Part shown: positions 6,034 to 23,404 of the stretch, one piece after another | Layout of the letters: each line of letters starts with the position of its first letter | How positions within the stretch are numbered: the stretch's first letter is position 1 | Origin: Candidatus Bathyarchaeia archaeon | GTDB lineage: Archaea; Thermoproteota; Bathyarchaeia; Bathyarchaeales; Bathycorpusculaceae | Direction of reading: 5' to 3' | Assembly (NCBI GenBank): GCA_049521795.1 | Contig: JBEKOM010000001.1 | Coordinates: 160,001-224,000, forward strand | DNA: 64,000 nucleotides | The notes under the pieces: generated by a model | Told to the model about the DNA's origin: nothing | The model's database searches: none | Seen by the model: the letters and a program-made list of their open reading frames with translations, nothing else | Translations under genes and position numbers: made by a program

Positions 6034-6459
6034 TTGGTCAACTGCCCAAAATGCGGCTGCGAAGTGGCCGCGCCTGTCAAAACTTGGCCGATTCCCTCTC
6101 GTGCACCCTTGAAAAAAGGTGAAAAAGTCAAACTTGCTGCCATATTTGAATGCCCCAGTTGCAAGGCCAGGTTCAGATCGGCCGTTGAACACGAAACGAA
6201 AATTCAACAGACAGCAAGTATTAAAAATATGGTGGGAAGAATTAAGGGCATCAAGGAAGAACTCATGCAGACACTCACGAATCTCCGCGAGAAGATAAAA
6301 ACTCTGGAGACAGAACGGGCAAACCTCATGGGCGAGATAGAAAACCTGAGAAAAGTTGCAGAGTCTAGAGCGGACGCCCTTGAAAACGAAGTGAGTGGGC
6401 TCAGAGAAGAAGTGAGATCTCTCAGAGACCTTTTGGGAAATTCGGAAAAAGAAAAATAG
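6034..6459 (+). CDS. Cren7-like zinc-ribbon domain fused to a coiled coil
   Basis: CPKCG..PVKTW....K.AAIFECPSCKARFR followed by about 80 aa of heptad repeats. Confidence 0.6.
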   Translation: MVNCPKCGCEVAAPVKTWPIPSRAPLKKGEKVKLAAIFECPSCKARFRSAVEHETKIQQTASIKNMVGRIKGIKEELMQTLTNLREKIKTLETERANLMGEIENLRKVAESRADALENEVSGLREEVRSLRDLLGNSEKEK

Positions 6460-6482
6460 AAAAACCGCTTCTCACGGTTTTT
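6460..6482. terminator. Bidirectional hairpin/U-tract terminator between convergent genes
   Basis: AAAAACCG-cttctca-CGGTTTTT inverted repeat between the stops at 6459 (+) and 6509 (-). Confidence 0.55.
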
Positions 6483-6508
6483 GACTTGAAGACCAGATAT
6501 TTCTGCGG

Positions 6509-6901
6509 CTAAGCCACCAGGACTTTCTTGTAGAATTCCTGCGCAACGGCCACCGCTTTCTCAGGGTTTTTCAATATCACGTATTGTCGACCTGTGACTC
6601 TTGCTGCATCAGTGTAATGTTCAACGACTTTCTTCACGTTTCCCTCGTAGATCGCTAGCCCCCCAGCGACCTCATACCACATCCCAGCCCTTGCCATGTC
6701 CCCGTCTTTTTCACTCTTCTTAGCGTTGTCAGCCGCCTGCTTCAAAGAAGTCTCGACCTTCCTAGGGTCGAGAAACATAGTTGAACATAGTGCTTCGTAG
6801 GTTTCCTTGTCGTTCCCAGTAAGCTGTTCAAGTTCCGAAACCTTCTTCTCATGTTCAACATCAGATTTCTTTTCTTCTCTTCTTCTTCTGAACCTTTGCA
6901 A
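6509..6901 (-). CDS. Hypothetical helical (TPR-like) protein
   Basis: 130-aa ORF filling the space between neighbours; alpha-helical repeat-like pattern (ARAGMWYEVAGGLAIYEG). Confidence 0.6.
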   Translation of the reverse strand: MQRFRRRREEKKSDVEHEKKVSELEQLTGNDKETYEALCSTMFLDPRKVETSLKQAADNAKKSEKDGDMARAGMWYEVAGGLAIYEGNVKKVVEHYTDAARVTGRQYVILKNPEKAVAVAQEFYKKVLVA

Positions 6902-6986
6902 GCTAAACCTCCGCTTGGAATACCTTCAATTTTGGACTAGTATACAATAGTTAATCTTAAAGGTTTGTCTCTCCACAAGCTATGGT

Positions 6987-7601
6987 ATGCCATACAAGTT
7001 CACGTTTGATCTTTCAAAAATCCCGCGTTTCTTCTTCACCGAGATAGCTAAGGCCAGCTATCAAAAGGGCATGAATAAACAGGTTAGCAAGACAGCACAA
7101 GAGATCATAAGAAAATTCAAGATAGAAGAGGCAACAGGCCTCAACTTGTACGACGCTGTAACCCTTCTAGAAGACTTGATGGATGCACAAGCAAGAAACC
7201 TCATCGAAAGAGAAAAATTCGTTCAAACAAAAAGGAGAGCCTTGTTCTTGCCTCACTGTTCCAGGAAGTTTATGGACAACAGATGCGGGGCGTCCTTCGA
7301 CCCGAGCATCCCCTCTTACGTATGCGTCCATTGCTCATCAGACTGCCCTGTAGGAAGAGCGGTTCTTTTCGGCCAGAAGAAAGGCTATGACGTGTACATC
7401 CTGCCAGGAGGTTCGTGCATTCCGAAGATTCTGAAGGCCAAGCAGTATGAAGGCGTCGTGGGAGTTGCTTGTGGCGAAGAAGTGAGACTCGGAGGAGACG
7501 TGTTGAAAGCCATGAACGTCGTTGGCCAGCACGTTCCACTGATAAAAAATGGATGCGCCAACACTGCTTTTAACATTGAAACGCTGTTCAACGTTCTGTA
7601 A
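6987..7601 (+). CDS. DUF116 domain protein (Cys-rich, metal-binding)
   Basis: LFLPHCSR..C...CVHCSSDC...YILPGGS...GVVGVAC...[10 protein letters not shown]. Confidence 0.85.
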
Positions 7602-7869: not shown

Positions 7870-8745
7870 CTATGATACCAACCTTTTTGCCAACAGTTCA
7901 GGTACGTCACCCGGTTTCTCAGCGACTGCAACGCCGGCTTCCTTGAAAGCTTCAATCTTGCTTTCAGCCGTTCCTGCTTTGCCCATAACTATCGCTCCTG
8001 CATGGCCCATGCGTTTTCCCGGCGGAGCCGAACGACCAGCCACGAATGCTACAACGGGTTTCGAGTATTTTTCCGTCGCAATGTACTTTGCCGCCAGCTC
8101 TTCAAGGTTGCCGCCGATCTCACCTATCAAAACCACAGCTCTTGTTTGAGGGTCCTTCGCGAACATCTTCAGGGCGTCTGTGAAGTTTAGCCCTGTTATT
8201 GGGTCTCCTCCAAGACCGAGACACGTCGACTGACCTAAGCCTTTCCTCGTCAAACCGGCAGCTATTTCATAAGTGAGGGTACCGCTCCTGGAAACCATGC
8301 CCACGCTGCCAGACGTGAAGATGTGTGAAGGCATGATGCCAAGCTTGCAGGCTCCAGGCGTTATTATGCCAGGAGTGTTCGGACCAATTATCCTTGCCTT
8401 CTTCTGACTCGCATAGGCCATGATTTCGATAGCGTCTCTTATCGGGATGTGTTCGGTTATTATCACGACCGTTCTTATGCCGTTGTCAAGCGCTTCAAGC
8501 GCTGCGTCTGCTGCAAACGGCGCCGGCACAAAGATTATCGAAGCGTTGGCACGACGTTTTTCCTGGGCTTCCTCAACGGTGTCGTAGACTGGAACGCCGT
8601 GCACTTCCAATCCTCCCTTCCCAGGCGAGGTGCCGCCAACTATTCTTGTTCCACAGTCGATCATGAGCTTAGTGTGGAAACTTCCTTGAGATCCGGTTAT
8701 ACCTTGAACGATTGCCCGTGTGTTCTTGCCAATTATTATTGCCAA
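7870..8745 (-). CDS. sucD: Succinate--CoA ligase alpha subunit
   Basis: [39 protein letters not shown] (phospho-His). Confidence 0.96.
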
Positions 8746-8759
8746 AGCCAGTTGCCTTC

Positions 8760-9896
8760 CTACTTGGACATTTCAACGACCCGCCGAGCGGCCTCCTCCA
8801 TGCTTTCTAGCACGTGGATCCCGGCTTCTTTCAGTATTCGCTTACCCTCCGCGTCGTTTGTGCCTACGAGTCTGATCACCATGGGTGTGGTTACTCCGAC
8901 CTTCTCTTTCGCCTCAAGTATACCTCGTGCAACTTCGTCACAGCGCGTGATCCCGCCTAGAATGTTTATGAAGAGTGTTTTTACTCGCGGGTCAGACAAC
9001 ACTATTTTCAGCGCCAGGGCCGTTTTTTCTGATGGCGCTCCGCCTCCGACATCTAAGAAGTTGGCTGGTTTTCCCCCGTAGTACTGGATCGTGTCCAGTG
9101 TCGCCATCACGAGGCCTGCTCCATTGCCGATCACACCTATGTTGCCTTCCAGTCTAACGTACGCTAGATCGTTGTTCATAGCTTCCAACTCCTGTGAACT
9201 AAGGTCGCTTTCGCCTTCCAGAAGCCTCTTCTTATAATCTTGATGCCTGAACAACGCGTTGTCATCGACGATAATCCTTGCGTCTGCTGCCACAAATCTC
9301 CCTTCCGCAGTTTCCACCAAAGGGTTCATCTCAATCAATTCAGCGTCATTTTCCAACGCAGCAACGTAGAGTCTTTCAAGGGTTTTTCCCAAGTCAGATA
9401 TCTGGTTGCCCCTGTAACCCATCTTCGTCGCAATTTCTTTGGTTTGAAAGGAGCGGAGACCGAGCTGGGGGTTTATGGAGGTTTTCACCACTTTTTCAGG
9501 CGTTCTTGAAGCTACTTCCTCGATGTCTACGCCGCCCAGTGAAGAAGCGACAGCAACATAGCATCGGTTAAGTCTGTCAGTTGTTATGCCAAAGTAAAGC
9601 TCTTTCTTTACCTGAATTTTCTCCTCGACCCAGACGCTCTTGACAGGTATCTCCTTTATCTTCATGCTCAGCAGCTTTTCTGCTGCTTTTTCAGCCTCCT
9701 CAGCCGACTGGGCAAAAAGTATGCCGCCTGCCTTTCCTCTTCCAGCGACCAACACTTGAGCCTTGACCACTACTGGCAGCCTGAGCCTAGCGGCGACTTC
9801 GCGAGCCTGGCCCGCACTCGTCGCCAATCCGCCTTGAGGCGTTGTGATCCCGTGTTTCCCAAGAATGTTTTTTGCTTCATACTCGTAAAGCTTCAA
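8760..9896 (-). CDS. sucC: Succinate--CoA ligase beta subunit (ADP-forming)
   Basis: [49 protein letters not shown]. Confidence 0.96.
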
Positions 9897-9908
9897 CCTC
9901 TCGCCCCC

Positions 9909-10367
9909 TCATCTTATGACTTCTATCGTGACGTAGGACTTTGTATCTTGTATACCGTCAACAGAAGACAGCTTTTTCAACACTTCGTCAAGCTTCTCCC
10001 TGTCAACCACGGCGAGTGCGTCAACGTCTCCTGCGATTCTAAACGCTCTTTGAACGGCAAGTTCCTTGACTTTCTCGTAAACGTAACTTCTCTTGAGAGG
10101 TGAAACCTTGATCAGTATGAAGGCAGGTGTTGAGGATATTCCAAGTGCGCTCAATCCCCGGTCTGTCACGTCTATGAAGCCTCTGCCGGTACGTATGTAG
10201 CGCAGGTCCCTGAGTTTTCTCAGATGTACGTTCAAGGCTTGTCTGCTTATGCCGAGCTGTTTTGCCAGTTCGTCTTGCTTCAAGCGAAGTGTGTAGGTGC
10301 TTGTGGCCTCGCCTCTTTCATAGAGCATTCGAAGCAGTTGCATTGAACGTCTTGTCAGCGCTTCCAA
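9909..10367 (-). CDS. Lrp/AsnC-type transcriptional regulator (HTH plus RAM domain)
   Basis: QDELAKQLGISRQALNVHLRKL HTH; C-terminal AFILIKV...IAGDVD...GIQDTKSYV RAM domain. Confidence 0.85.
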   Translation of the reverse strand: MEALTRRSMQLLRMLYERGEATSTYTLRLKQDELAKQLGISRQALNVHLRKLRDLRYIRTGRGFIDVTDRGLSALGISSTPAFILIKVSPLKRSYVYEKVKELAVQRAFRIAGDVDALAVVDREKLDEVLKKLSSVDGIQDTKSYVTIEVIR

Positions 10368-11456: not shown

Positions 11457-12776
11457 ATGAAACTGGATTCCATTGATGATTGGCGCAGAACGCACTATTC
11501 TGTTGACGTTAAACCTGACCTCGACGGCCAAGAGGTTACCCTTTTCGGTTGGGTCCAAGAAATAAGAGACCTGGGTGGAATTCGCTTCATAATATTGCAG
11601 GACAGGGAAGGCACGATTCAAGTCACCATCCTTCGAAAGAAGGCCCCCAGCGAAGTCATATCGAAGTCCGACGGACTGCAGAGACGCTACAGCATAGCCG
11701 TGAAAGGAACGGTGAAGAAGACTGACATGACGCAAAGAGGCGTCGAAGTCTTACCGAATGATATCAAGATTCTGAGCACAGCCACGCGAGAGTTGTCAAT
11801 AGACATTTGTGACAAGACCCCAGCAAGTATCGAAACGTGCTTGGAAGCACGAACACTGGACTTGTGTCGAGAAAAAAACATCGCAGTCTTCAAGGTCCAA
11901 CACACCGCGGTAGAAGCAATCAGAGGTTTCCTTTTCGAAAGAGGCTTCTTAGAGGTGCACACGCCTCGCATAATTGCCTCAGCGACAGAAGGAGGCTCTG
12001 CACTCTTTCAACTTGACTATTTTGACAGAAAAGCATACCTGGCTCAGAGCCCGCAGTTGTACAAAGAAGAGCTTGTCATGAGCCTGGAAAAGGTCTTCGA
12101 GATCGGACCCTTTTTCAGAGCTGAAGAGTCGCACACTCGGAGCCACCTGAGCGAGTTCGTGTCGATAGACATCGAACAGGCTTTCGCAACAGCTGAAGAT
12201 GTGATGCAGATACTTGAGCAGCTCATGCGACACGTTTGCAAGACCGTGGGTGAAAAACGTCAGAGGGAACTGAGGACGCTGAAATATAGCTTGAAGGTGC
12301 CGGATGTTCCTTTCAAACGACTAAAATACTCTGAGGTTCTCGAAGAACTGAACCGGGAGGGCATGGAGATTCCATGGGGACAGGACATACCGACACCAGC
12401 CTATAGGAAGCTGGGAAAGCTTCATCCGTCCTTCTATTTCATAGTTGATTGGCCAACGGAGACAAGAGCCTTCTACACAAAGCCGCGTGACGACTGCCCC
12501 GAAATCTCTGAAGGTTTCGACCTGATGTGGCGCTGGTTGGAGCTCGTTTCGGGCGGTACCAGAATAGCCTCGAAAGACCTGCTCATGAAGCGGCTTAGAG
12601 AGAAGGGTCTGAGCCCGGAAGCCTTCAAGCACCACCTTCAAGCTTTTGATTATGGAATGCCGCCGCATGCAGGTTGGGCAATCGGGTTGGAAAGGCTGAC
12701 GATGATGTTGACAGGTAAGAAGAACATAAGAGAGGTCACACTTTATCCTCGAGACAAGTTCAGACTGACCCCGTGA
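11457..12776 (+). CDS. aspS: Aspartate--tRNA ligase (archaeal type)
   Basis: GWVQEIRDLGG OB fold, LAQSPQLYK, FRAEES, GMPPHAG..IGLERL, PRD. Confidence 0.95.
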   Translation: MKLDSIDDWRRTHYSVDVKPDLDGQEVTLFGWVQEIRDLGGIRFIILQDREGTIQVTILRKKAPSEVISKSDGLQRRYSIAVKGTVKKTDMTQRGVEVLPNDIKILSTATRELSIDICDKTPASIETCLEARTLDLCREKNIAVFKVQHTAVEAIRGFLFERGFLEVHTPRIIASATEGGSALFQLDYFDRKAYLAQSPQLYKEELVMSLEKVFEIGPFFRAEESHTRSHLSEFVSIDIEQAFATAEDVMQILEQLMRHVCKTVGEKRQRELRTLKYSLKVPDVPFKRLKYSEVLEELNREGMEIPWGQDIPTPAYRKLGKLHPSFYFIVDWPTETRAFYTKPRDDCPEISEGFDLMWRWLELVSGGTRIASKDLLMKRLREKGLSPEAFKHHLQAFDYGMPPHAGWAIGLERLTMMLTGKKNIREVTLYPRDKFRLTP

Positions 12777-12871: not shown

Positions 12872-14377
12872 ATGGGAGACCAGCCGAAGATCGCATGTGG
12901 AGTATTTGCAGCTGTAAACTACGATAAGCGGCCAGTGTTTCAAAACATTTATTGGGGTTTACGGGCTGAAAACCACAGGGGACATCAGTCTCATGGTTTC
13001 CTCACGTATTTTGACGGAAAGTTCCACGTTCACAGAAGCCTCGACCTCGTGCCGAAGATTAGAACGAGCGCAATTCAAGAATGGTTTGGCCGGTTGCCTG
13101 GAAATGTCGGCATTGGAAACGTGAGGTACACAACGTCCGGAAGATGCGACGAGAAATCGCTCGTGGAAGGCACGCAACCAGTGACAGCTTCAAAACAAGG
13201 CCATGGGCTCGCGATTTCCTACAACGGCAACGTGGTCAACACGTTCGAGCTTCGGAAAGAGATATCCAAGGAGTTTCCACAGTTTACCAGTGAATGCGAC
13301 GCAGACCTAATCTGCTATAAACTGCTGATCGAAGTCTTGAGAGGAAAAGATCTAACGTCCGCCGTTGGGACATGCATGGAAGAAATCGACGGAGCCTTTT
13401 CTGTGGCGTGCATTGACCAAGACGGCAATCTCTTCGCCTTCAAGGACCCACATGGAATAAGACCGTTGTGCGCAGGCCACAGCGAAGACCATTCAACGTA
13501 TGCATTCTCGTCTGAAACCGTCAGTTTAGACATAAACGGTTTCGTAAGAGATTTCGAGCTGTTGCCAGGAGAGCTGGTCACGGTTTCAAACAAGGGGTTT
13601 CAAAGACAGAAGCTCATAAAAGGGAAAGTAAAGGCTTTCTGCGCCTTTGAATTCGCATACTTTGCAAGGCCAGACTCACGGTTTGACAGCAAGTACGTCT
13701 ATGAGATTCGTGAAGAATTTGGAAGAAACCTTGTGAGAGAGAATCCGAAGGTTGTCAAGGACGCGGACATAATTCTTTCCGTGCCTGAAACAGGGGACGA
13801 CTCGGCCCTCGGCGTTCACGAAGCTTCTGGGTTGAGATGGGAGAGGGCTTCACGAAGACACCGCTACGTAACCGAGAGGGCATTCATCCTGCTTAGCAAA
13901 GACCGAAGCCCAACGATAGAGAGGAAAATCAACATCCTCGGTCCCAGAATCGAAGGAAAACGCATCATAATAACCGAAGACAGCATCGTCAGAGGAGACA
14001 CGACAAGGGTCATAATTGACAAACTGCGCAGGATGGGCGCCGAGAAAGTGTACGTTTTCGTCACTTTTCCACGGATAATCGGACCATGTCTGTACGGAAT
14101 AGACATGGCAACATACGGCCAACTCATAGGCTCAAGACACAGCACGGAAGAAATCGCAAAGATCATAGGGGCAGACGGCGTGTGCTACCAGTCACTCGAA
14201 GGCCTGGTACAAGCAACAGGGTTCAAGCAAGACGAGTTGTGCACGGGATGCATAACAGGCAAATATCCAACACCGCTGGCCCAAGCAATAGCCGATGAGA
14301 TGAAGAAACGGTTCTCGCAGGGTTTTGAAGAGAGAGAAAGACTGTACGAAATGGAAGAAGCTGTTCCTAGAGCCTAG
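12872..14377 (+). CDS. purF: Amidophosphoribosyltransferase
   Basis: Short propeptide then N-terminal Cys (CGVF), HRG, GNVRYTTSG, DPHGIRPL, CAFEFAYFARPDS, EDSIVRG, CTGCITGKYP. Confidence 0.93.
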   Translation: MGDQPKIACGVFAAVNYDKRPVFQNIYWGLRAENHRGHQSHGFLTYFDGKFHVHRSLDLVPKIRTSAIQEWFGRLPGNVGIGNVRYTTSGRCDEKSLVEGTQPVTASKQGHGLAISYNGNVVNTFELRKEISKEFPQFTSECDADLICYKLLIEVLRGKDLTSAVGTCMEEIDGAFSVACIDQDGNLFAFKDPHGIRPLCAGHSEDHSTYAFSSETVSLDINGFVRDFELLPGELVTVSNKGFQRQKLIKGKVKAFCAFEFAYFARPDSRFDSKYVYEIREEFGRNLVRENPKVVKDADIILSVPETGDDSALGVHEASGLRWERASRRHRYVTERAFILLSKDRSPTIERKINILGPRIEGKRIIITEDSIVRGDTTRVIIDKLRRMGAEKVYVFVTFPRIIGPCLYGIDMATYGQLIGSRHSTEEIAKIIGADGVCYQSLEGLVQATGFKQDELCTGCITGKYPTPLAQAIADEMKKRFSQGFEERERLYEMEEAVPRA

Positions 14378-14406: not shown

Positions 14407-15834
14407 ATGGCAGACGGGTTACTCATGGAAAAAGTGGGCGTGCTTGTCGTTTCTTATGGGTCAAGAGAAGTAGCCATGGTGGACGCTTTTGCCCGCAGCC
14501 GAAACTACAAAGTGGAGATCTACATTGCTGATAAGCAACGCAACCCCTTCAACGCGAAGAGGGCAGCCAAACACGTTGTAATACCTGACTTGAATGTTGA
14601 AGAAATCTGCAAATTCGCAGAGAGGAACAAGCCTGGAATTGACTTCGGTATCGTGGGCACTGAAAAACCGATAATCGAGGGAATTCGGGATCTCGTGGAG
14701 AAACGAACAGGAATACCCATGATCTGTCCAACAAAGCGATGTGCTATCGAGGGAAGCAAGGTTCAACAACGGCTCCTCTTCAAAAGAGTCGCCCCCGAAG
14801 TCAACCCGCGCTTTAAGATATTCAACCCAAAAGAGTACAAAACCGTTGCAGAAGTCAAGAAAGACGTTTACGATTGGCTCGACAAACTGGCTGACCAAGC
14901 TGTAGTTAAACCGGACAAGCCAGCAGCCGGAAAAGGCGTCGGCGTCTGGGGCGACCACTTCTCGAACCGAGAACAACTGTTCGAACACTTCCTCTCAAAC
15001 TACCAACACGGTTCAGTGATAATAGAAGAAAAAATCGAAGGAGAGGAATCAAGCTTTCAGGCGTTCTGCGACGGAAAACATCTTCTACCTCTGCCGGACA
15101 CCAGAGACTACAAACGGGCGTTCGACGAGGATAAGGGGCCGAACACGGGAGGAATGGGTTCGTACAAGGGCGTCGGAGACGTGTTGCCGTTTCTATCTGA
15201 TGCTGATCGTGCCAAAGAGCTGAACGTCGTCAACACGATCTTTCAAGGATGGAAAGGAGAAGACAGTTCAGCCCTTCGAGGCGTCCCTTTCTACGTTGCC
15301 TTCATGCACACGCGCAGAAAACTGAAGATTCTTGAGAACAACAGTCGACCGGGAGACCCCGAGATGATCAACATAATGCCCGTCTTGAAAGATGATTTCC
15401 TTGATGTATGTTACAAAATGTTGGAAGGAAACCTGACAAGGCTCCAATTAGAAAAAGCCGCGACAGTGGTAACCTACAAGGCTCCACCTTCCTACGGCGG
15501 ATACGCAGAAACCTTCCCAAGCCTTGTCAAAACAGACAGCGTTGACAGACCAGTCGACCTGGCGAGAGCTTATGAATTGAGCAAGAAATATGGTGACGAT
15601 ATTCGAATCTACCCCGCATCGATGGAAAAACGTGAAGGCAAGACCTTCGCCCTCAAATCCAGAGCCGTGTGCGCCGTGGGCATCAGCGAAAGCATAGAAA
15701 AAGCTCGGCAGATCTCACTTGAAGGCTTGAAGGCAATACGGGGTGGATCCCTCTGGAATCGAACCGACGTAGCCTCAGAAAACCACATAGAGAAAAGCGT
15801 AAAGCACATGGAGAAGCTGAGGCACAAGCCGTGA
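14407..15834 (+). CDS. purD: Phosphoribosylamine--glycine ligase (GAR synthetase)
   Basis: GSREVAM, IEGSK, VVKPDKPAAGKGV, DYKRAFDEDKGPNTGGMGS, ENNSRPGDPE. Start may be 14425. Confidence 0.93.
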   Translation: MADGLLMEKVGVLVVSYGSREVAMVDAFARSRNYKVEIYIADKQRNPFNAKRAAKHVVIPDLNVEEICKFAERNKPGIDFGIVGTEKPIIEGIRDLVEKRTGIPMICPTKRCAIEGSKVQQRLLFKRVAPEVNPRFKIFNPKEYKTVAEVKKDVYDWLDKLADQAVVKPDKPAAGKGVGVWGDHFSNREQLFEHFLSNYQHGSVIIEEKIEGEESSFQAFCDGKHLLPLPDTRDYKRAFDEDKGPNTGGMGSYKGVGDVLPFLSDADRAKELNVVNTIFQGWKGEDSSALRGVPFYVAFMHTRRKLKILENNSRPGDPEMINIMPVLKDDFLDVCYKMLEGNLTRLQLEKAATVVTYKAPPSYGGYAETFPSLVKTDSVDRPVDLARAYELSKKYGDDIRIYPASMEKREGKTFALKSRAVCAVGISESIEKARQISLEGLKAIRGGSLWNRTDVASENHIEKSVKHMEKLRHKP

Positions 15835-16913
15835 AGAGGCTTTTCATCACAGACTGCGAAGGACCCATTTCGAAGAACGACAACGCTCTCGAAACGCTGT
15901 CACATTTTGTCCCACAAGGCGACAGACTCTTCACCGTCGTAAGCAGGTATGACGATGTCCTTTCAGACGTGTTGAGAAGACCAGGATACCACGCAGGCGA
16001 CACGTTGAAGCTTGTGCTACCCTTCCTGAAGGCATACGACGTTACCGACGAAGAGAGTAGACAGTTTTCTGCCAGAAGCCTCGTCTTGATCGCACTCGCA
16101 GGGGACTCGCTTCGACACATGAGAAGCATTGCACCGGCATACATCGTCAGCACAAGCTACGAACACTACATCAGGGCCTTATGCAAGGCTCTTGAGTTTC
16201 CGTTTGAGAAAACCTATTGCACTAAGCTCAGCTTGGACGCGTACACCGTAACCTCAGAGGAGAAAGACGGCCTAAGAAAATTCGGCTGTGAAATCGCGCA
16301 GTTACCCATGTTCGAGAGTCCAGCAGAAACGAAGAGTCTAAAAGACCTTCCAGAAGAGGCTCAGACAACAATTCGAAGGCTGGATGAGATTTTCTGGAAA
16401 ACCATTGCTAAAATGCCGATCGGAAAAATCTATTCTGAAGTCAACCCTGTTGGAGGCAGAGAAAAAGCTGAAGTAATAAAGGACATAACAGGCAAGGAAT
16501 GCGTGGCTTTAAAGGACACGATGTACGTGGGTGACAGCATAACTGACGAGGAAGCCTTCAAGCTTGTGAAGGAAAACGGCGGTCTGACTGTTTCATTCAA
16601 CGGGAACCAATACGCTGTCAGAAACGCTGAAATCGCACTGCTCTCCGAGGACAGTTTGACGACGGCGGTGATCGCTGACGTTTTCATCAAGTTCGGAAAA
16701 ACGGAAACACTAAAACTAGTGGCGAAATGGAATAGCAGAACGCTAGAGAACAGTTCAATGAACGAGGACTTGCGAGAACAATTTCTCAAACTGCATCCTC
16801 GAGAACTGCCCAAAGCCAGAATAGTAACGAGGGAAAACATGAAAGACCTAGCGAAGGAGAGTAGCGAGTTTAGAAAGAAGATCAGAGGAAAAGCCATCGG
16901 CAGGTTAGGATAG
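15831..16913 (+). CDS. HAD-superfamily phosphohydrolase, EhaR-like
   Basis: [15 protein letters not shown] (motif I variant DxEG), IVSTSYEHY (motif II), K, YVGDSITD (motif IV), [12 protein letters not shown] overlap with purD. Confidence 0.85.
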
Positions 16914-16915
16914 GT

Positions 16916-17830
16916 TTGATCAAGAAAGACTTGATTGAAGACACGTATGCCGAAGCCTTTTCAGGATTATACTGCCGCGTCTTAGTGACCGCGGATGACG
17001 AAGAGACAGTTAAGAAGGCTGCTGACGATGCGACCGCAACGCCTTCAGGTGTTATAGGTAGACTTGACAGCGGAGTCGAAAGACTGCTGGGGAAGAGTGA
17101 AACGCCCGATGCTCGAAGAGGAGCAATCTTGCAGTTCTGGAAGGGCCTGGACAGAGGAAAACCTCTGGAAGGCATGCTTGACCGTTTTGAAAAGGAGCTT
17201 TCCTACCGAATTCGTCAAGACATCTTGGTGAAGCCTTTCACAGCGGTCTTCGACGCTTTGTCCGTGGAGCCTGAGGGGAAAATGGACATGATGGAAAGGG
17301 TTGGCCACTGCGGAGACGGGTATGAGTGGGAAGAGCAACTGTACGGAAAGAAAGTGATCGTCGTCCCAATCATGGTGCCTGACTTTCTCATAGAGCGTTT
17401 CATCGGCTACGCGAGAGGAATCGCTGGCGGCAACTTCTGGTACATGTGCAAAACGAAAAAACAAGTAGTTCTCGCCGGAAAGAAGGCGCTGGCAGCCATA
17501 CATCAGGTTGAGGGCGTAACAACGCCATTCGACGTCTGCTCAGCCGGGTCGAAGACTGAAACGCGCTTTCCCCTGATAGGGCCCACCACAAATCATCCGT
17601 ACTGCCCCTCCCTGAAGAGGAAGTTAAAGACCGAGTCCAAAGTGCCAGAAGGCGTCAACTACATCCCAGAAATAGTGATCAACGGCATCTCCATTGACGC
17701 AGTTAGAAAAGCAATGAAGGCCGGCATAGAAGCGGTTTTGAGCGTTGATGGCGTGGTGAGGGTTTCTGCGGGAAACTACGGTGGAAAGCTGGGTGAACAC
17801 AAGATAAATTTGAAAGAGCTGTTTCGATGA
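16916..17830 (+). CDS. Formylmethanofuran--H4MPT formyltransferase paralogue (EhaS/Ftr-II-like)
   Basis: [66 protein letters not shown]. Lacks the canonical TSVIxCxxEAG segment (has [12 protein letters not shown]). Confidence 0.88.
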
Positions 17831-18756
17831 GCAGGCTCGATGCTATAGGATTCGGCGCCCTCAACGTTGACAAGCTGTTTAAAGTGAACAGAATAGCCGC
17901 TGCTGAAGAAGAGAGCTTTGTAGCCTCTCACTCAGAGACTTGCGGCGGCTCAGCGGCAAACACCATGGTGGCCTTGGCAAGACTTGGCTGCAAAGTAGGC
18001 TTCATCGGCAAGATTGCCAGCGACGCTGAAGGAAGAATGCTGCTTCAAGATTTTCGAAAAGAAGGCGTTGATACAAGAGGCGTAACGGTTGCGACGACGG
18101 GAAGAAGCGGCAAAGTAATGGGTTTCGTGGGCAAAAGGGGAGAACGCGCATTGTACATAGACCCGGGCGTGAACGACGCAATAAAACTCGCCGAAATAGA
18201 CACTGAATATGCGTCAAACACTAAATTCTTGCATTTATCATCCTTCGTTGGAAGACAGTCGTTCGAAACACAGAAAAAACTCGTTAAAAAGCTGCCTGAA
18301 AAAGTCAAGGTGAGCTTCGACCCTGGAGCACTGTACGCGAGAATCGGATTTGCGAAGCTGAAGCCCGTCTTAGACAGGACCTCTGTGATGATGCCTAACG
18401 CGGGTGAACTGGCCTTACTGACGGGCAAGAGTGACTACAAAGCGGGCGCACGATTGCTAATTGACGAAGGGGTTGAAGCCTTAGCTGTGAAGCTGGGAAG
18501 CAAAGGATGCTACGTCATGGACAAAGAAGAAAGCTGCCTAGTGGAACCCTTCAAAGTCGAGGTTGTTGACACGACTGGAGCTGGCGACGCGTTCGACGCT
18601 GGCTTCATCTACGGACTACTCTCCGGCAAGAACATCAATGAAGCCGGAAAAATAGGCAATTTCATCGCCTCAAGGTCTATCACCGCTATGGGCGCCAGAG
18701 CTGGCCTGCCAACACTTGACGACTTGAAGAAATCTCTTGGCACAAGTCGAAATTAG
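17827..18756 (+). CDS. PfkB/ribokinase-family kinase (EhaT-like, putative nucleoside kinase)
   Basis: [44 protein letters not shown] overlap with the Ftr-like gene. Confidence 0.92.
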
Positions 18757-19198: not shown

Positions 19199-19275
19199 TG
19201 GTGCGGTCGCCGGGATTTGAACCCGGGTCGTCGGCGTGGGAGGCCGATGTCCTAGCCATGCTAGACTACGACCGC
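19199..19275 (-). tRNA. tRNA-Gly(CCC), intronless, CCA encoded
   Basis: Reverse complement GCGGTCGTAGTCTAGCATGGCTAGGACATCGGCCTCCCACGCCGACGACCCGGGTTCAAATCCCGGCGACCGCACCA; anticodon arm TCGGC-CT-CCC-AC-GCCGA. Confidence 0.96.
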
Positions 19276-19365: not shown

Positions 19366-20934
19366 TTATCCCTCTTCTTCAACAACACGAGCTTTCGGCT
19401 TTTTGCTGCCATTAGCCCGCGTCGATAGGTATACCGTGGTTATCAAGAATGCTGCCGTTATTGCCCCAAAGACGTACGTGAGGTTGTGAATGTTTTGCAC
19501 GCTTTGAGATTGATCCATCAAGCTGCTCTGTAAAGACGAGTTCAACGCCAGATAGCTGCTCTGCAGTTGGCTGAGGTTTTGCAGCAAGAGGTCAAAGCTG
19601 CTCAGCAGAGCCTTATACGTGGAGCTCATGTTGTCGATCTCAGCCTGCAGGCTCGCGTTATAGTTGCTCAAAAGAGCTTGGTATGTCGCGTTCAAGCTGT
19701 TAAAGTCTGTTTGAAGCTTAGTATACTCGCTAAGCAATTCGCTCTGCAACTGTAGTACTTCTGAAGAGATCACAGTAATGCTCTGATCCCCGTGCGGGTA
19801 GCTGAAGTACAAATAAGTAGTTGCGTTATCAGAAGCGCTCAACAAAGAGGTTGCAACCTCTCCTTCACGATCTACGACGATCAAGGGGTACTCCATCAGC
19901 GACACCGGAATCGTCATCCTACAGAAACCAGATGTACCGTCCTTCCCGACTGCACTGAAGCTGACCATCTTGTAGCCCGTTTCTCTGCCAACTTCAAACT
20001 TGAAATCAGGGATTGTGGAGTTGCTGATAACGGTTATCTGAAATTTCTCATAGTTGTACATTATGTCGTACTCGGAAAAAGTTCCCACCAAGGGATAGTT
20101 ATCCTGGTTATTCTCATCTATGGTATAGTTCTCGTCTCCAATCCCGTTTGTGCTCGGTCCTGTGAAATTGTAGTCAGCGAAGTAATTCCCTTCACCGTCA
20201 CGACTCCAAACATTTGTTGACGGACTATTTACTTGAATTGGGTTTGCGTCCAAAAAGTTGTTATGGTAAAAGAAGTTCCTGTTGCTGTCCGCAGAAAGAA
20301 AAACATCAACGACATTATCTGAAAACGTGTTACCAGAAAACAGGTTGCTGTAAAGGTAACCATTAAAGACGACTCCGATTGAGTTACTTGAAAGAATGTT
20401 ATTCGAAAACACGTTGCCGCTTGAACCAGAGATCATGATTCCATTGGAGTTATTGACGATAGCGTCGTTCGAAAAGGCGCCGTTGCTGGACAAGTCAAGA
20501 GTCAGGCCAGTGTTAGTGTTCGTGATCTCAGTGTCACTTATGACGACTCCAGTGCTTCGTGACACATGTATCCCGACGCCGGAATGGCCTAAGATGGTAT
20601 TGGTGATGGTCAAACTTTCAATGGTCACGTTTCCACTGCTTATTGAAATCGCGTAGTCGCCACCATTGCCATCAATAATCGTTGTCGTTCTGTTTTCTCC
20701 GACAATAGACAGACTCTTTTTGATTGTGAGATTTTCATGGTAGGTGCCGGTGGCCACCAAGATCGTGTCGCCTGAACTTGCATTGTCAATGGCTGCCTGG
20801 ATCGTTCCAGTGGTTGAAACGTGGATAACGCCCGGACTTGCATAAACATACACTCTACATCTAACAAAGGAAAACATGAAGAGCAAAAATAACCCAATTA
20901 GCACAATCGAAACGACTTTCTTCAAATCAATCAC
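19366..20934 (-). CDS. Secreted, membrane-anchored NosD/pectin-lyase-like beta-helix surface protein with coiled-coil stalk
   Basis: Signal peptide, TIQAAIDNASSGDTILVATGTYHE, Asn-rich beta-helix repeats, FYHNNF, GNYF..DNYPL, coiled coil, C-terminal TM. Confidence 0.85.
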   Translation of the reverse strand: MIDLKKVVSIVLIGLFLLFMFSFVRCRVYVYASPGVIHVSTTGTIQAAIDNASSGDTILVATGTYHENLTIKKSLSIVGENRTTTIIDGNGGDYAISISSGNVTIESLTITNTILGHSGVGIHVSRSTGVVISDTEITNTNTGLTLDLSSNGAFSNDAIVNNSNGIMISGSSGNVFSNNILSSNSIGVVFNGYLYSNLFSGNTFSDNVVDVFLSADSNRNFFYHNNFLDANPIQVNSPSTNVWSRDGEGNYFADYNFTGPSTNGIGDENYTIDENNQDNYPLVGTFSEYDIMYNYEKFQITVISNSTIPDFKFEVGRETGYKMVSFSAVGKDGTSGFCRMTIPVSLMEYPLIVVDREGEVATSLLSASDNATTYLYFSYPHGDQSITVISSEVLQLQSELLSEYTKLQTDFNSLNATYQALLSNYNASLQAEIDNMSSTYKALLSSFDLLLQNLSQLQSSYLALNSSLQSSLMDQSQSVQNIHNLTYVFGAITAAFLITTVYLSTRANGSKKPKARVVEEEG

Positions 20935-20985: not shown

Positions 20986-21687
20986 TCATCTACGAGCAAG
21001 CATTTCTCCCAGTATCAAGGAGCAAATGACAGATACACACAGACCGGAAACAAAAAGAACCGTATTGATGACAGGCTGTACGAGTGCCCACAAAACTGCA
21101 GAATAGGAGGCTATTACAAAGAACATTAGTGCGACAGCCCTGAAATATCCTCTTCTACCTCTCTCTTGCTGGACCGAAGCAGAGCGGAGTAGGTCTTGCA
21201 TCTGTCTTATCTGCTCGTCAGTCGCCAGGACAACAAGGTTCTTGTCACTGTCTTGAAACTTGAAGCTTGAAAGCGCGTATCTCTGGAGTTGCCAAGGATT
21301 TCTCTTTGGCAAGATTCTGACAATGTGACTCTTCTCCATCTTCTTCAGTATCGTCTGAATCTTACGGACAAACTGGAGGTCAACCGTCTTTTCTTCTCCA
21401 TACAACCTTCTTATCAGGTCTTTGACGTCCGGAAACGTCAATTCCAACTGGAAGGACGCGATTGCCTTGACAAGATTGAACTGATATTCACCTTCTCGCA
21501 AACGCAAATTGCCAGTAACGCAGTCTGCACTCGCGGTTTCTTTAAGAAATTTTATCTCACTTGGCAACAAACGGTGCTCAGACACTGTTTTCCCTGAATC
21601 AATAGTTTCAATTGACCTATATAATAAATACTTCGTGCAGGAAATGTGCGAATTCAACTCTTTCAACTCATCTGTCTCCATTTTCAA
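20986..21687 (-). CDS. Hypothetical winged-helix protein with two C-terminal TM helices
   Basis: PDVKDLIRRLY...VRKIQTILKKMEKSHIVRILP..WQLQRYAL resembles a wHTH; two hydrophobic segments at the C-terminus. Confidence 0.6.
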   Translation of the reverse strand: MKMETDELKELNSHISCTKYLLYRSIETIDSGKTVSEHRLLPSEIKFLKETASADCVTGNLRLREGEYQFNLVKAIASFQLELTFPDVKDLIRRLYGEEKTVDLQFVRKIQTILKKMEKSHIVRILPKRNPWQLQRYALSSFKFQDSDKNLVVLATDEQIRQMQDLLRSASVQQERGRRGYFRAVALMFFVIASYSAVLWALVQPVINTVLFVSGLCVSVICSLILGEMLARR

Positions 21688-21735: not shown

Positions 21736-22143
21736 ATGGGAGTGTTATATATGGAGAATTATGTCATTGACCGCAATTTGTCCTATTTACCTTTGCAAAA
21801 TAGATACCGTCTGTGCGGTTTCCCTCTGGGCAAGAAGTACAGAAGCCACTTCGAAATCATAGCTTTGATGGTTGAAGCTGTCAAGGATGGAGGACAGACG
21901 AGATTCTCCATAATGAAGCGCGCAGGCATCAACTGCGGCCAACTCAAGAGATTTCTTAGGTCTCTCATTGAGATGGGCTTCATCCAAGAATATGTGAAAG
22001 ATGGCAAGGTCGTGTTCAGAGCAAGTGAGAGAGGGCTTGGCTTTCTAAGGCAGTATTACGTGTTGCTGACCATGGTTTTGGCCGCTGAGAATGGAACTAG
22101 ACGGTCGACTATGGTGTATGAACCGCAACTGAGGCAGAGATGA
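21736..22143 (+). CDS. Small winged-helix regulator (HTH_45-like); true start may be downstream
   Basis: YRSHFEIIALMVEA...TRFSIMKRAGIN..QLKRFLRSLIEMGFI...FRASERG. Confidence 0.8.
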   Translation: MGVLYMENYVIDRNLSYLPLQNRYRLCGFPLGKKYRSHFEIIALMVEAVKDGGQTRFSIMKRAGINCGQLKRFLRSLIEMGFIQEYVKDGKVVFRASERGLGFLRQYYVLLTMVLAAENGTRRSTMVYEPQLRQR

Positions 22144-22327: not shown

Positions 22328-23404
22328 GTGACCCGAAAACTCACCTACTCCGACTCTGGAGTTGACAGAGACTTAAGAGCTGAGTCAAAAAAAGCGTTAC
22401 ACATATTGAAGCAGACTTACGAACATAGCCGATACGGTAAAGTTGTCGAGCTTCCATACGGAAACATTTTTCCATTTCACGACCGTTATCTGGACCTGAC
22501 TATTGAAGGAGTCGGGACAAAAGTGCTCATTGCCCAGCTAGCAGACAAATACGATACCATTGGAATTGACGGCGTGGCAATGGCAGTCAATGACGTCATA
22601 CGTTCTGGCGCGAGACCAATCGCAATCGCAGATAACATCCACGCACAGGTTTCCGACCCTTCTCTTGTCAAAGAATGGATGAGAGGCATTTCAAGAGCGG
22701 CAGCCGAGTCAGAATGCATCGTTCCCAGCGGCGAGATTGGCGACGTAGCCGATCTGATAAATGGTCTCCGGTCAGGCAAGGGGTTCGACATGATTTTCGC
22801 GGCAGTAGGTGAAGTCGCTAAAGAAGATGTGATTTCAGGAAGAAACATAGGCCCTGGGGACCCAATAATAGGCTTGAAGAGTTCAGGGCTTCACAGCAAC
22901 GGCATATCTCTCGCCAGAAAAGTTCTTTTCAGGCAATGGGGCGGGAAGTACGAGGCGGACGCTGTTCCTGACGGGTTTGAACAAGAGCTAGTCCGTGAAG
23001 TCTTGGAACCGACCAGAATATACGTCAAGCCATTTCTCAGACTGACAAAAAAACTTGAAGTCAAGGCTGCAGTGCACATCACTGGCGACGCATACCTCAA
23101 GTTTGGCCGCCTTGCAAAGCCTTCCCAAGCCATAGGCTTCGAATTTGACAACATCAAACAGCAGCCAATCTTCGACTTGGTCCAAAAAACCGCAAGCGAA
23201 CTGAAAAGCCCGATAACGGACAAGGAGATGTTCAAAACATTCAACATGGGGTGGGGATTCGCAGCCATAGTGGAAAAAGCCGAAGCAGACAAGGCCTTAG
23301 ACACTTTGAACAAAGCAGGAGTAGAATCAGAACAGATAGGCCACGTAACGAGCTCCAGAGGAATCAGAGTCCTGCACAAGGGTAAGAAAATCATTTTGGA
23401 TTAG
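22328..23404 (+). CDS. purM: Phosphoribosylformylglycinamidine cyclo-ligase (AIR synthetase)
   Basis: TYSDSGVD, EGVGTK, GIDGVAMAVND, SSGLHSNGISLARK, LEPTRIY, HITG, TFNMGWG. Confidence 0.95.
   Translation: MTRKLTYSDSGVDRDLRAESKKALHILKQTYEHSRYGKVVELPYGNIFPFHDRYLDLTIEGVGTKVLIAQLADKYDTIGIDGVAMAVNDVIRSGARPIAIADNIHAQVSDPSLVKEWMRGISRAAAESECIVPSGEIGDVADLINGLRSGKGFDMIFAAVGEVAKEDVISGRNIGPGDPIIGLKSSGLHSNGISLARKVLFRQWGGKYEADAVPDGFEQELVREVLEPTRIYVKPFLRLTKKLEVKAAVHITGDAYLKFGRLAKPSQAIGFEFDNIKQQPIFDLVQKTASELKSPITDKEMFKTFNMGWGFAAIVEKAEADKALDTLNKAGVESEQIGHVTSSRGIRVLHKGKKIILD

Follow-up and report, generated by a model that had tools for sequence, protein, structure and literature searches.

The ftr2 gene and its operon

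The window analysed here is a stretch of 64,000 nucleotides from the genome of a Candidatus Bathyarchaeia archaeon (assembly GCA_049521795.1, contig JBEKOM010000001.1, positions 160,001 to 224,000 of the forward strand), and all coordinates given below are positions in it. The window contains a gene for a divergent member of the Ftr family, the formyl-methanofuran:tetrahydromethanopterin (H4MPT) formyltransferases. This protein is referred to as Ftr2 and the canonical enzyme as Ftr1. The ftr2 gene lies in an operon with the order purF-purD-HAD-Ftr2-pfkB, all on one strand. The product of PurD, encoded two genes upstream of Ftr2, is glycinamide ribonucleotide (GAR), the proposed formyl acceptor. 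The genes of the operon and the purM gene downstream of it are as follows:

12872..14377, plus strand: purF, amidophosphoribosyltransferase, 501 amino acids, first gene of the cluster (Pfam GATase_7 and GATase_6; TIGR01134 at 311.9 bits, under its cut-off of 350)
14407..15834, plus strand: purD, GAR synthetase, 475 amino acids (Pfam GARS_N, GARS_A and GARS_C, the last under the Pfam cut-off; TIGR00877 at 244.6 bits, under its cut-off of 288)
15831..16913, plus strand: HAD-superfamily protein, EhaR-like, 360 amino acids (weak HAD-IIB, HAD-IB and trehalose-phosphatase matches)
16916..17830, plus strand: ftr2, EhaS-like, candidate GAR formyltransferase (single open reading frame, TTG start, 304 amino acids)
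17827..18756, plus strand: PfkB-family kinase, EhaT-like, 309 amino acids (Pfam PfkB, 187.4 bits)
22328..23404, plus strand: purM, aminoimidazole ribonucleotide synthetase, 358 amino acids (TIGR00878 at 253.6 bits, above its cut-off of 236.35)

The junctions between these genes are tight: the purD stop overlaps the HAD start, the HAD stop lies 2 bases before the TTG of ftr2 and the ftr2 stop overlaps the kinase start. A scan of the operon for promoters and terminators found sites no more frequently than in shuffled sequence.

All the Ftr hallmark motifs claimed by the initial annotation are present in the 304-residue translation (EDTYAEAF at 8-15, GGNF at 171-174, GSK at 211-213, TTNHPYCP at 224-231, EIVING at 252-257 and AGNYGGKLG at 285-293), and its observation of a divergent Ftr-family protein was confirmed. 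Ftr2 matched only the Pfam domains FTR (145.7 bits, cut-off 27) and FTR_C (194.9 bits, cut-off 25), with no homology to the GAR formyltransferases PurN (PF00551) or PurT (TIGR01142). It passed the cut-off of the NCBIfam Ftr subfamily NF002554 (348 bits, cut-off 297) and scored under that of the FhcD equivalog (245.5 bits, cut-off 292.6). An AlphaFold model of Ftr2, with a predicted local distance difference test score (pLDDT) of 91.4, gave template modelling (TM) scores of 0.88-0.91 against the solved archaeal Ftr structures 1M5S, 1FTR and 1M5H. These canonical enzymes share both Pfam domains and the fold with Ftr2, are 35-40% identical to it and also have E252, GSK and GNYGG. FhcD of methylotrophic bacteria (PDB 6S6Y chain D) also has this fold, with a TM score of 0.87-0.88 against the model. 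A search for longer, fused relatives of Ftr2 returned none at E <= 1e-20, a negative of little weight. The long representatives of the Ftr family were canonical-type FwdA-Ftr or Ftr-FwdC fusions or had no further domain. Two proteins, P0152 and P0164, are canonical-type Ftr fused to an amidohydrolase (FwdA/FhcA-like) domain or to a below-cut-off GXGXG (FwdC/FhcC-like) domain.

The initial annotation had described the protein as a paralogue, and the host genome (2.44 Mb, 98.75% complete) does carry a separate canonical ftr among its two Ftr-family genes. This second gene, on contig 5, encodes a protein 38% identical to Ftr2 that has the canonical ATGLATSVI...AEAG segment. Two trees placed Ftr2 outside canonical Ftr and FhcD. 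In the tree of 61 representatives, a branch with 99% support parted Ftr2 from a group of 42 rows that included the genome's other copy. The other tree, of 81 rows that included named loci, gave the Ftr1 side 100% support in the Shimodaira-Hasegawa-like approximate likelihood ratio test (SH-aLRT); Ftr2 stood on the opposite side and the 'Ftr2' label amounted to a single change. The Ftr1 side held Bathyarchaeia Ftr1, Hadarchaeota, Methanolliviera, Hydrothermarchaeota and the Planctomycetota Fhc-type copies. Both trees were quick searches with SH-aLRT support only and without biochemically characterised proteins, and the Ftr1 side was recognised by the genome's other copy, the Planctomycetota Fhc-type copies and the profile score. 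By these sequence comparisons, Ftr2 is a paralogue separate from Ftr1.

The profile used for typing, A1, was built from 12 Ftr2 sequences. Its scores were bimodal, and the gaps between the two modes were used to type genomes. In Thermoproteota, Ftr2-type proteins scored 339-472 bits and Ftr1-type proteins at most 276 bits; the corresponding values in Halobacteriota were 380-452 bits and at most 296 bits. Among the 77 Halobacteriota genomes with Ftr2-type matches, 11 matches were flagged with one in-frame stop, a mixture of TGA, TAA and TAG (for example G472, G477, G452, G347 and G417; G numbers denote genomes, L numbers loci and f numbers families). In these cases the match to the profile probably extends beyond the start of the gene by a few codons.

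A residue comparison of 53 Ftr2-type with 48 Ftr1-type sequences, both sets non-redundant, found the altered N-terminal segment noted by the initial annotation (residues 39-53, 15 residues) to be real and clade-wide, though several other patches have changed as well. At position 41, 100% of Ftr1 sequences have G, where Ftr2 has A or S. At position 43, 98% of Ftr2 sequences have P, against A or G in Ftr1; at position 46, 100% of them have V, against I in most of Ftr1; and at position 48, 92% of them have G, against C or S in most of Ftr1. Outside the segment, R100, C132, I148, E215 and I221-G222-P223 are changes just as strict; Ftr1 has F at position 132, W or Y at 148, G at 215 and A at 223. 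In all, 15 positions were strictly Ftr2-only (P43, V46, G48, W75, E94, R100, G130, C132, I148, C178, E215, P219 and I221-G222-P223). The clade has replaced the aromatic residues F132 and W/Y148 and gained an invariant R100. The lowest-confidence loops of the model are residues 41-50 (pLDDT 66) and 211-230 (pLDDT 72-80), so that two of the changed patches are also the least confidently modelled. Both clades have in common E252 (in EIVING), G211-S-K213, C230-P231 and N287/G289/G290, with E252 kept at 85% or more in each. From its motif, we take E252 of Ftr2 to be the probable equivalent of the catalytic FhcD Glu252; the corresponding glutamate in M. kandleri Ftr is Glu245. A catalytic role has been described for the conserved FhcD glutamate (Glu252 in FhcD numbering; PMC6926001).

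Distribution of Ftr2, PurN and PurT

Purine synthesis in the host genome has a gap at its third step, the one proposed for Ftr2, for which PurN and PurT are the two known enzymes. No match to PurN-type proteins (PF00551) or to PurT (TIGR01142) was found in this 98.75% complete genome, and no PurH was found either. A PurP-type gene (DUF1297), purD, purF and purM are present. Since the genome has PurP and lacks PurN and PurT, GAR formylation is its only purine formylation step without a candidate gene.

The distribution of Ftr2 was then compared with that of PurN and PurT in samples of two phyla, 301 Thermoproteota genomes (each at least 80% complete) and 191 Halobacteriota genomes. A threshold of E <= 1e-60, set by us, defined PurT-like proteins. 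A purD gene was found in 209 of the 301 Thermoproteota genomes. Ftr2 occurred in none of the 166 purD-bearing genomes with a PurN-type or PurT-like protein and in 39 of the 43 that had neither, one of these 39 being partial. The sole Thermoproteota genome with Ftr2 and no purD match is a 300-contig assembly; a close relative of it has no Ftr2, PurN or PurT and also no purD. Switches were seen inside single families: f7 includes G028 with Ftr2 and G002 and G116 with PurT-like proteins, and f29 includes G271 and G295 with Ftr2 and four genomes with PurT. In Halobacteriota, 72 of the 77 genomes with Ftr2-type proteins had neither PurN-type nor PurT-like proteins and the other 5 all had PurN-type, while a PurN-type or PurT-like protein was present in 108 of the 114 genomes without Ftr2-type proteins and absent from 6. 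Over the 492 genomes, the presence of Ftr2 was nearly complementary to that of PurN and PurT. Five further Ftr2 genomes came from other lineages. Four of them (Borrarchaeum, Hadarchaeota, Hydrothermarchaeota and a metagenome-assembled genome (MAG) labelled Promethearchaeota) lacked PurN and PurT, and the fifth, Methanolliviera, has a PurN-type gene.

The purD matches in Thermoproteota differed in strength. Their E-values were 1e-61 to 1e-81 in Ftr2-bearing Bathyarchaeia, 1e-111 to 1e-113 in the PurT-like-bearing Bathyarchaeia of f7 and 1e-100 to 1e-115 in the Ftr2-bearing genomes of f29. PurD may travel together with the operon.

Published work contains the two halves of this argument. In the section concerned, Brown 2011 (PMC3261824) reports purN and purT as absent from Archaeoglobi, M. 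kandleri and four Methanobacteriales species (printed as 'Methanomicrobiales'). The corresponding parts of Chadwick 2022 (PMC9012536) report that Archaeoglobales, M. kandleri, M. marburgensis and the anaerobic methanotrophic archaea (ANME) of group ANME-1 have a divergent Ftr2 to which no function is assigned, and state that ANME-1 lacks PurN and PurT; the missing enzymes and Ftr2 are not connected there. No published link of Ftr paralogues or EhaS to GAR formylation was found in the full-text literature, a search that left most subscription journals outside. One candidate, PMC11915815, was rejected, as its mention of GAR transformylase is an entry in the reference list only.

Gene neighbours and partner proteins

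The association of Ftr2 with purine genes is not limited to the window. Among 52 Ftr2-type loci from named genomes, several of which end at contig ends, the HAD gene was a neighbour in 43, the kinase gene in 43, both in 41, purD in 38 and purF in 31, and only 7 had none of the four. In 25 of the 52, purM lay no more than 10 kb from Ftr2. In contrast, none of 28 Ftr1-type loci had HAD, kinase, purD or purF as neighbours. The whole order purF-purD-HAD-Ftr2-pfkB was found again in the Asgard archaeon Borrarchaeum (L053), at protein identities of 28-43%, and in L133, from a Bathyarchaeia genome that belongs to a different family. Three small Halobacteriota genomes (G377, G393 and G333) have the order HAD-pfkB-Ftr2. 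The complete genome G316 (L126) has mch, purM, an opposite-strand HIT gene and then Ftr2, with mch, purM and Ftr2 on the same strand.

Other arrangements were also seen. In f29 of Thermoproteota, L131 (G271:C6) has Ftr2 and Ftr1 adjacent and convergent, at 7992-8912 (plus strand) and 8964-9950 (minus strand). In L045, from the Promethearchaeota-labelled MAG, a classical HAD hydrolase of 243 amino acids lies directly upstream of Ftr2 (9235-9966, plus strand); it matches the Pfam families Hydrolase and HAD and had no BLAST match to the 360-residue EhaR type. In L119 (G351:C1), a protein of 446 amino acids with a thymidylate-synthase (ThyA-like) domain is encoded divergently beside Ftr2 (6218-7558, minus strand), and this neighbour is another consumer of anabolic one-carbon (C1) units.

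Ten Halobacteriota Ftr2 copies (L083-L092, from G408, G368, G321, G352, G343, G310, G360, G415, G384 and G332) are 67-70% identical to the one in the window, as are the copies of L011 and L015. The two of the ten that were placed in the tree, L083 and L088, were nested inside Bathyarchaeia Ftr2, and by sequence this looks like horizontal transfer from Bathyarchaeia. Short remnants of HAD and/or kinase genes lie beside Ftr2 in 4 of these 10 loci, and all ten genomes have a HAD-type gene elsewhere. We considered that the lone copies (L011, L015 and L083-L092) could mean that Ftr2 works alone. This idea was dropped, since the ten genomes of L083-L092 encode the HAD type elsewhere.

The HAD and PfkB proteins belong to the Ftr2 module. 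In Halobacteriota, the HAD type was found in 73 of the 77 Ftr2 genomes and in 13 of the 114 others. A kinase orthologue (35-49% identical) lay directly beside the HAD gene, with Ftr2 elsewhere, in 4 of 5 genomes tested. The copy of the HAD protein in the window had no Pfam match. Its solved relative is the uncharacterised A. fulgidus protein AF1437 (PDB 1Y8A, 183.7 bits), and 28 of 120 homologues among the matches listed, by our count, are named 'energy-converting hydrogenase A subunit R' by the Joint Genome Institute (JGI). All four HAD motifs were invariant in nine sequences (D8-x-E10-G-P, S107-T-S, K212 and G234-D-S-I-T-D239), with motif I reading D-x-E and not D-x-D. The best NCBIfam match of the PfkB protein was ribokinase, at 171 bits far under the cut-off of 299.65, and no equivalog scored above its cut-off. 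Twelve kinase sequences had invariant N13, D15, G40-G41-S42, N45 and D248-x-x-G251-A-G-D254. These include the GAGD motif of the ribokinase family as well as the elements N-x-D and GGS-x-x-N, and we take N13, D15 and N45 to be furanose-binding residues. A complex prediction for Ftr2, HAD and PfkB, run without controls, gave a score of 0.00 with the kinase as partner and is evidence neither way.

The names and annotation history of these proteins, rather than a direct alignment, indicate that the HAD-Ftr2-PfkB triad of the window corresponds to EhaR-EhaS-EhaT. These three are encoded at the end of the eha operon of Methanothermobacter, where the same protein types are adjacent; the triad in the window differs in being attached to purF-purD and not to hydrogenase genes. 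According to the relevant part of Kaster 2011 (PMC3087415), Methanothermobacter EhaS and EhaT were first annotated as a formyltransferase and a ribokinase, and these enzyme roles were rejected because ehaS and ehaT are co-transcribed with ehaA-R, so that the proteins are seen as hydrogenase subunits.

The remaining features around the operon are the following, the last four lying downstream of it, on the side of purM:

11457-12776, plus strand: aspS, upstream in the co-directional run
19199-19275, minus strand: tRNA-Gly (CCC), just downstream of the operon
19366-20934, minus strand: repeat-rich protein of 522 amino acids with hydrophobic ends, between the operon and purM
20986-21687, minus strand: protein of 233 amino acids with no Pfam match, between the operon and purM
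21736-22143, plus strand: winged-helix HTH_45 protein, between the operon and purM

Candidate reaction and its alternatives

Comparative genomics makes it likely that the HAD-Ftr2-PfkB module carries out GAR formylation. Ftr2 is probably, judging from these comparisons, a third kind of GAR formyltransferase that was recruited to purine synthesis and replaces PurN and PurT. The initial annotation had suggested that GAR could take the place of methanofuran, and the separate canonical ftr of the genome, the position of Ftr2 outside the canonical clade, the purine operon, the absence of PurN and PurT and the complementarity over 492 genomes support that suggestion. We infer the acceptor, donor and chemistry as follows. 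Mch would make N5-formyl-H4MPT from methenyl-H4MPT, and PurD would supply GAR. On the retained Ftr scaffold with its catalytic glutamate, the primary amine of GAR would attack the formyl carbon of N5-formyl-H4MPT. The products would be formylglycinamide ribonucleotide (FGAR) and H4MPT, with GAR replacing methanofuran in the reverse Ftr reaction.

We are somewhat less confident of H4MPT as the donor than of GAR formylation by the module. The host genome carries Mch and also FwdA, the latter alongside its Ftr1, and therefore both formyl-H4MPT and formyl-methanofuran should be available. No FwdA was found in any of the 5 Halobacteriota genomes with Ftr2 and without Ftr1. A proteome study of Methanonatronarchaeum (PMC5852551) reports that Mer, Mtd, Mch and Ftr are expressed without Fwd and Mtr, and calls the link unknown. 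Together with the mch-purM-Ftr2 cluster of G316, these data favour N5-formyl-H4MPT as the donor, and the direction from formyl-H4MPT to GAR that the initial annotation had put forward gains support from them. FhcD already transfers the formyl group of formyl-H4MPT to a primary amine, which is the direction proposed for Ftr2 (PMC6926001 for FhcD). FhcD differs from Ftr2 in grouping with Ftr1 in the trees, in being built into or fused with Fhc/Fwd subunits (as in P0152 and P0164) and in acting on methylofuran. Canonical Ftr differs in its fwd/C1 rather than purine context and falls in a separate clade, with 15 strictly different positions, and Ftr2 persists in genomes without Ftr1 and FwdA. PurN would have the same net reaction, the transfer of a formyl group from a reduced pterin to the GAR amine, but Ftr2 has no PF00551 match and its proposed cofactor is H4MPT, not folate. 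PurT carries out the same pathway step in folate-free archaea and has a distribution complementary to that of Ftr2. It is an ATP-grasp enzyme that uses free formate and ATP, in contrast to Ftr2, which has no ATP-binding fold and could involve ATP only through its PfkB partner.

Several points weigh against GAR formylation by Ftr2, which is proposed wholly from comparative genomics. Both phyla were sampled, and related genomes are not independent counts. The PurT-like set includes matches of 206-330 bits, far under the 502-bit cut-off, and the function of these is uncertain. Of the 43 purD-bearing Thermoproteota genomes without PurN and PurT, four have no Ftr2 either. Ftr2 and PurN-type proteins occur together in 5 of the 77 Halobacteriota genomes (G301, G312, G334, G377 and G393), and the part of Chadwick 2022 concerned (PMC9012536) gives PurN alongside Ftr2 in ANME-2a/2b. 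Six Halobacteriota genomes have no Ftr2, PurN-type or PurT-like protein; all six carry the HAD type, and some of them may therefore be incomplete. Methanothermobacter EhaS was absent from the tree, and 20 representatives gave no Methanobacteriales or Archaeoglobus names. Among the Ftr2-only genomes, Mch was examined in G316 alone. In the passage concerned, Brown 2011 (PMC3261824) notes, with reference to earlier work, that formyl-H4MPT, in its N10 form, is believed not to serve as a formyl donor and expects formate or a non-methanopterin formyl source instead. Finally, a transfer by one enzyme leaves unexplained why the HAD protein and the kinase travel with Ftr2.

The partners would have a function in an ATP-driven by-pass by all three proteins through a dephosphorylated intermediate, which we consider unlikely. 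The EhaR-type HAD phosphatase would remove the 5'-phosphate of GAR, Ftr2 would formylate the neutral glycinamide riboside in a methanofuran-like pocket with N5-formyl-H4MPT as donor, and the EhaT-type PfkB kinase would re-phosphorylate the product to FGAR. One ATP would be spent per turn, as by PurT, and this would make the step irreversible even though the formyl donor is weak. If this were true, EhaR, EhaS and EhaT would not be hydrogenase subunits at all. The by-pass fits the intact motifs of the partners, their co-occurrence with Ftr2, the HAD-kinase pairing in 4 of 5 genomes and the presumed furanose-binding residues of the kinase. Speaking against it is the invariant, Ftr2-specific R100, which could bind the phosphate. 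It is quite unlikely that the triad formylates some other acceptor, such as aminoimidazole carboxamide ribonucleotide (AICAR), glycine (in which case PurD would ligate N-formylglycine) or a sugar or cofactor intermediate. The divergent PurD of these operons, the HAD and kinase pair found apart from Ftr2 and the ThyA-like gene beside Ftr2 in G351 would agree with such an acceptor. However, the host genome already has PurP for AICAR formylation, the complementarity is specific to the two GAR formyltransferases and GAR formylation is the only searched pathway step that lacks a candidate gene.

Two further explanations leave GAR aside. Ftr2 could be a second isoenzyme of formyl-methanofuran:H4MPT formyltransferase, for example one that is anabolic or under different regulation, with the anticorrelation reflecting lineage and cofactor usage. 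Its score above the NCBIfam Ftr cut-off and its retained fold, catalytic glutamate and shared motifs are what such an isoenzyme would have. Most Ftr2 genomes use H4MPT and lack folate enzymes, and this alone could explain the absence of PurN. PurT, however, needs no folate, so cofactor usage leaves its absence unexplained, and the five Ftr2-only genomes without FwdA would have no formyl-methanofuran dehydrogenase for the isoenzyme to pair with. The presence of purD in 38 of 52 Ftr2 loci, as against no purine neighbours in 28 Ftr1 loci, and the 15 clade-specific positions with the loss of two aromatic residues also argue against it, and we regard this explanation as very unlikely. The co-transcription of ehaS and ehaT with ehaA-R, reported in the part of Kaster 2011 cited above, would suit EhaR, EhaS and EhaT as accessory subunits of an energy-converting hydrogenase, with their location in a purine operon being incidental. 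But the triad stands beside purD without hydrogenase genes here and in 37 of the 52 loci, its genes also occur as HAD-pfkB-Ftr2 (G377, G393 and G333) or dispersed, and the fully conserved catalytic motifs of the HAD protein and kinase point to working enzymes rather than structural subunits. This last possibility seems barely credible.

A missing GAR formyltransferase in Archaeoglobi, Methanobacteriales and Methanopyrus has been known since at least 2011, according to the section of Brown 2011 concerned (PMC3261824), and there is now a concrete, testable candidate for it. If GAR formylation by the Ftr2 module is true, Ftr2 would represent a third, non-homologous class of GAR formyltransferase, and the H4MPT C1 pool would feed purine synthesis directly. 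It would explain the 'orphan' set of Mer, Mtd, Mch and Ftr that the cited part of PMC5852551 describes in Methanonatronarchaeia, which lack Fwd and Mtr. EhaR, EhaS and EhaT would be re-assigned from hydrogenase subunits to nucleotide metabolism. Annotations as canonical Ftr, HAD hydrolase or EhaR, and ribokinase would be corrected in hundreds of genomes.

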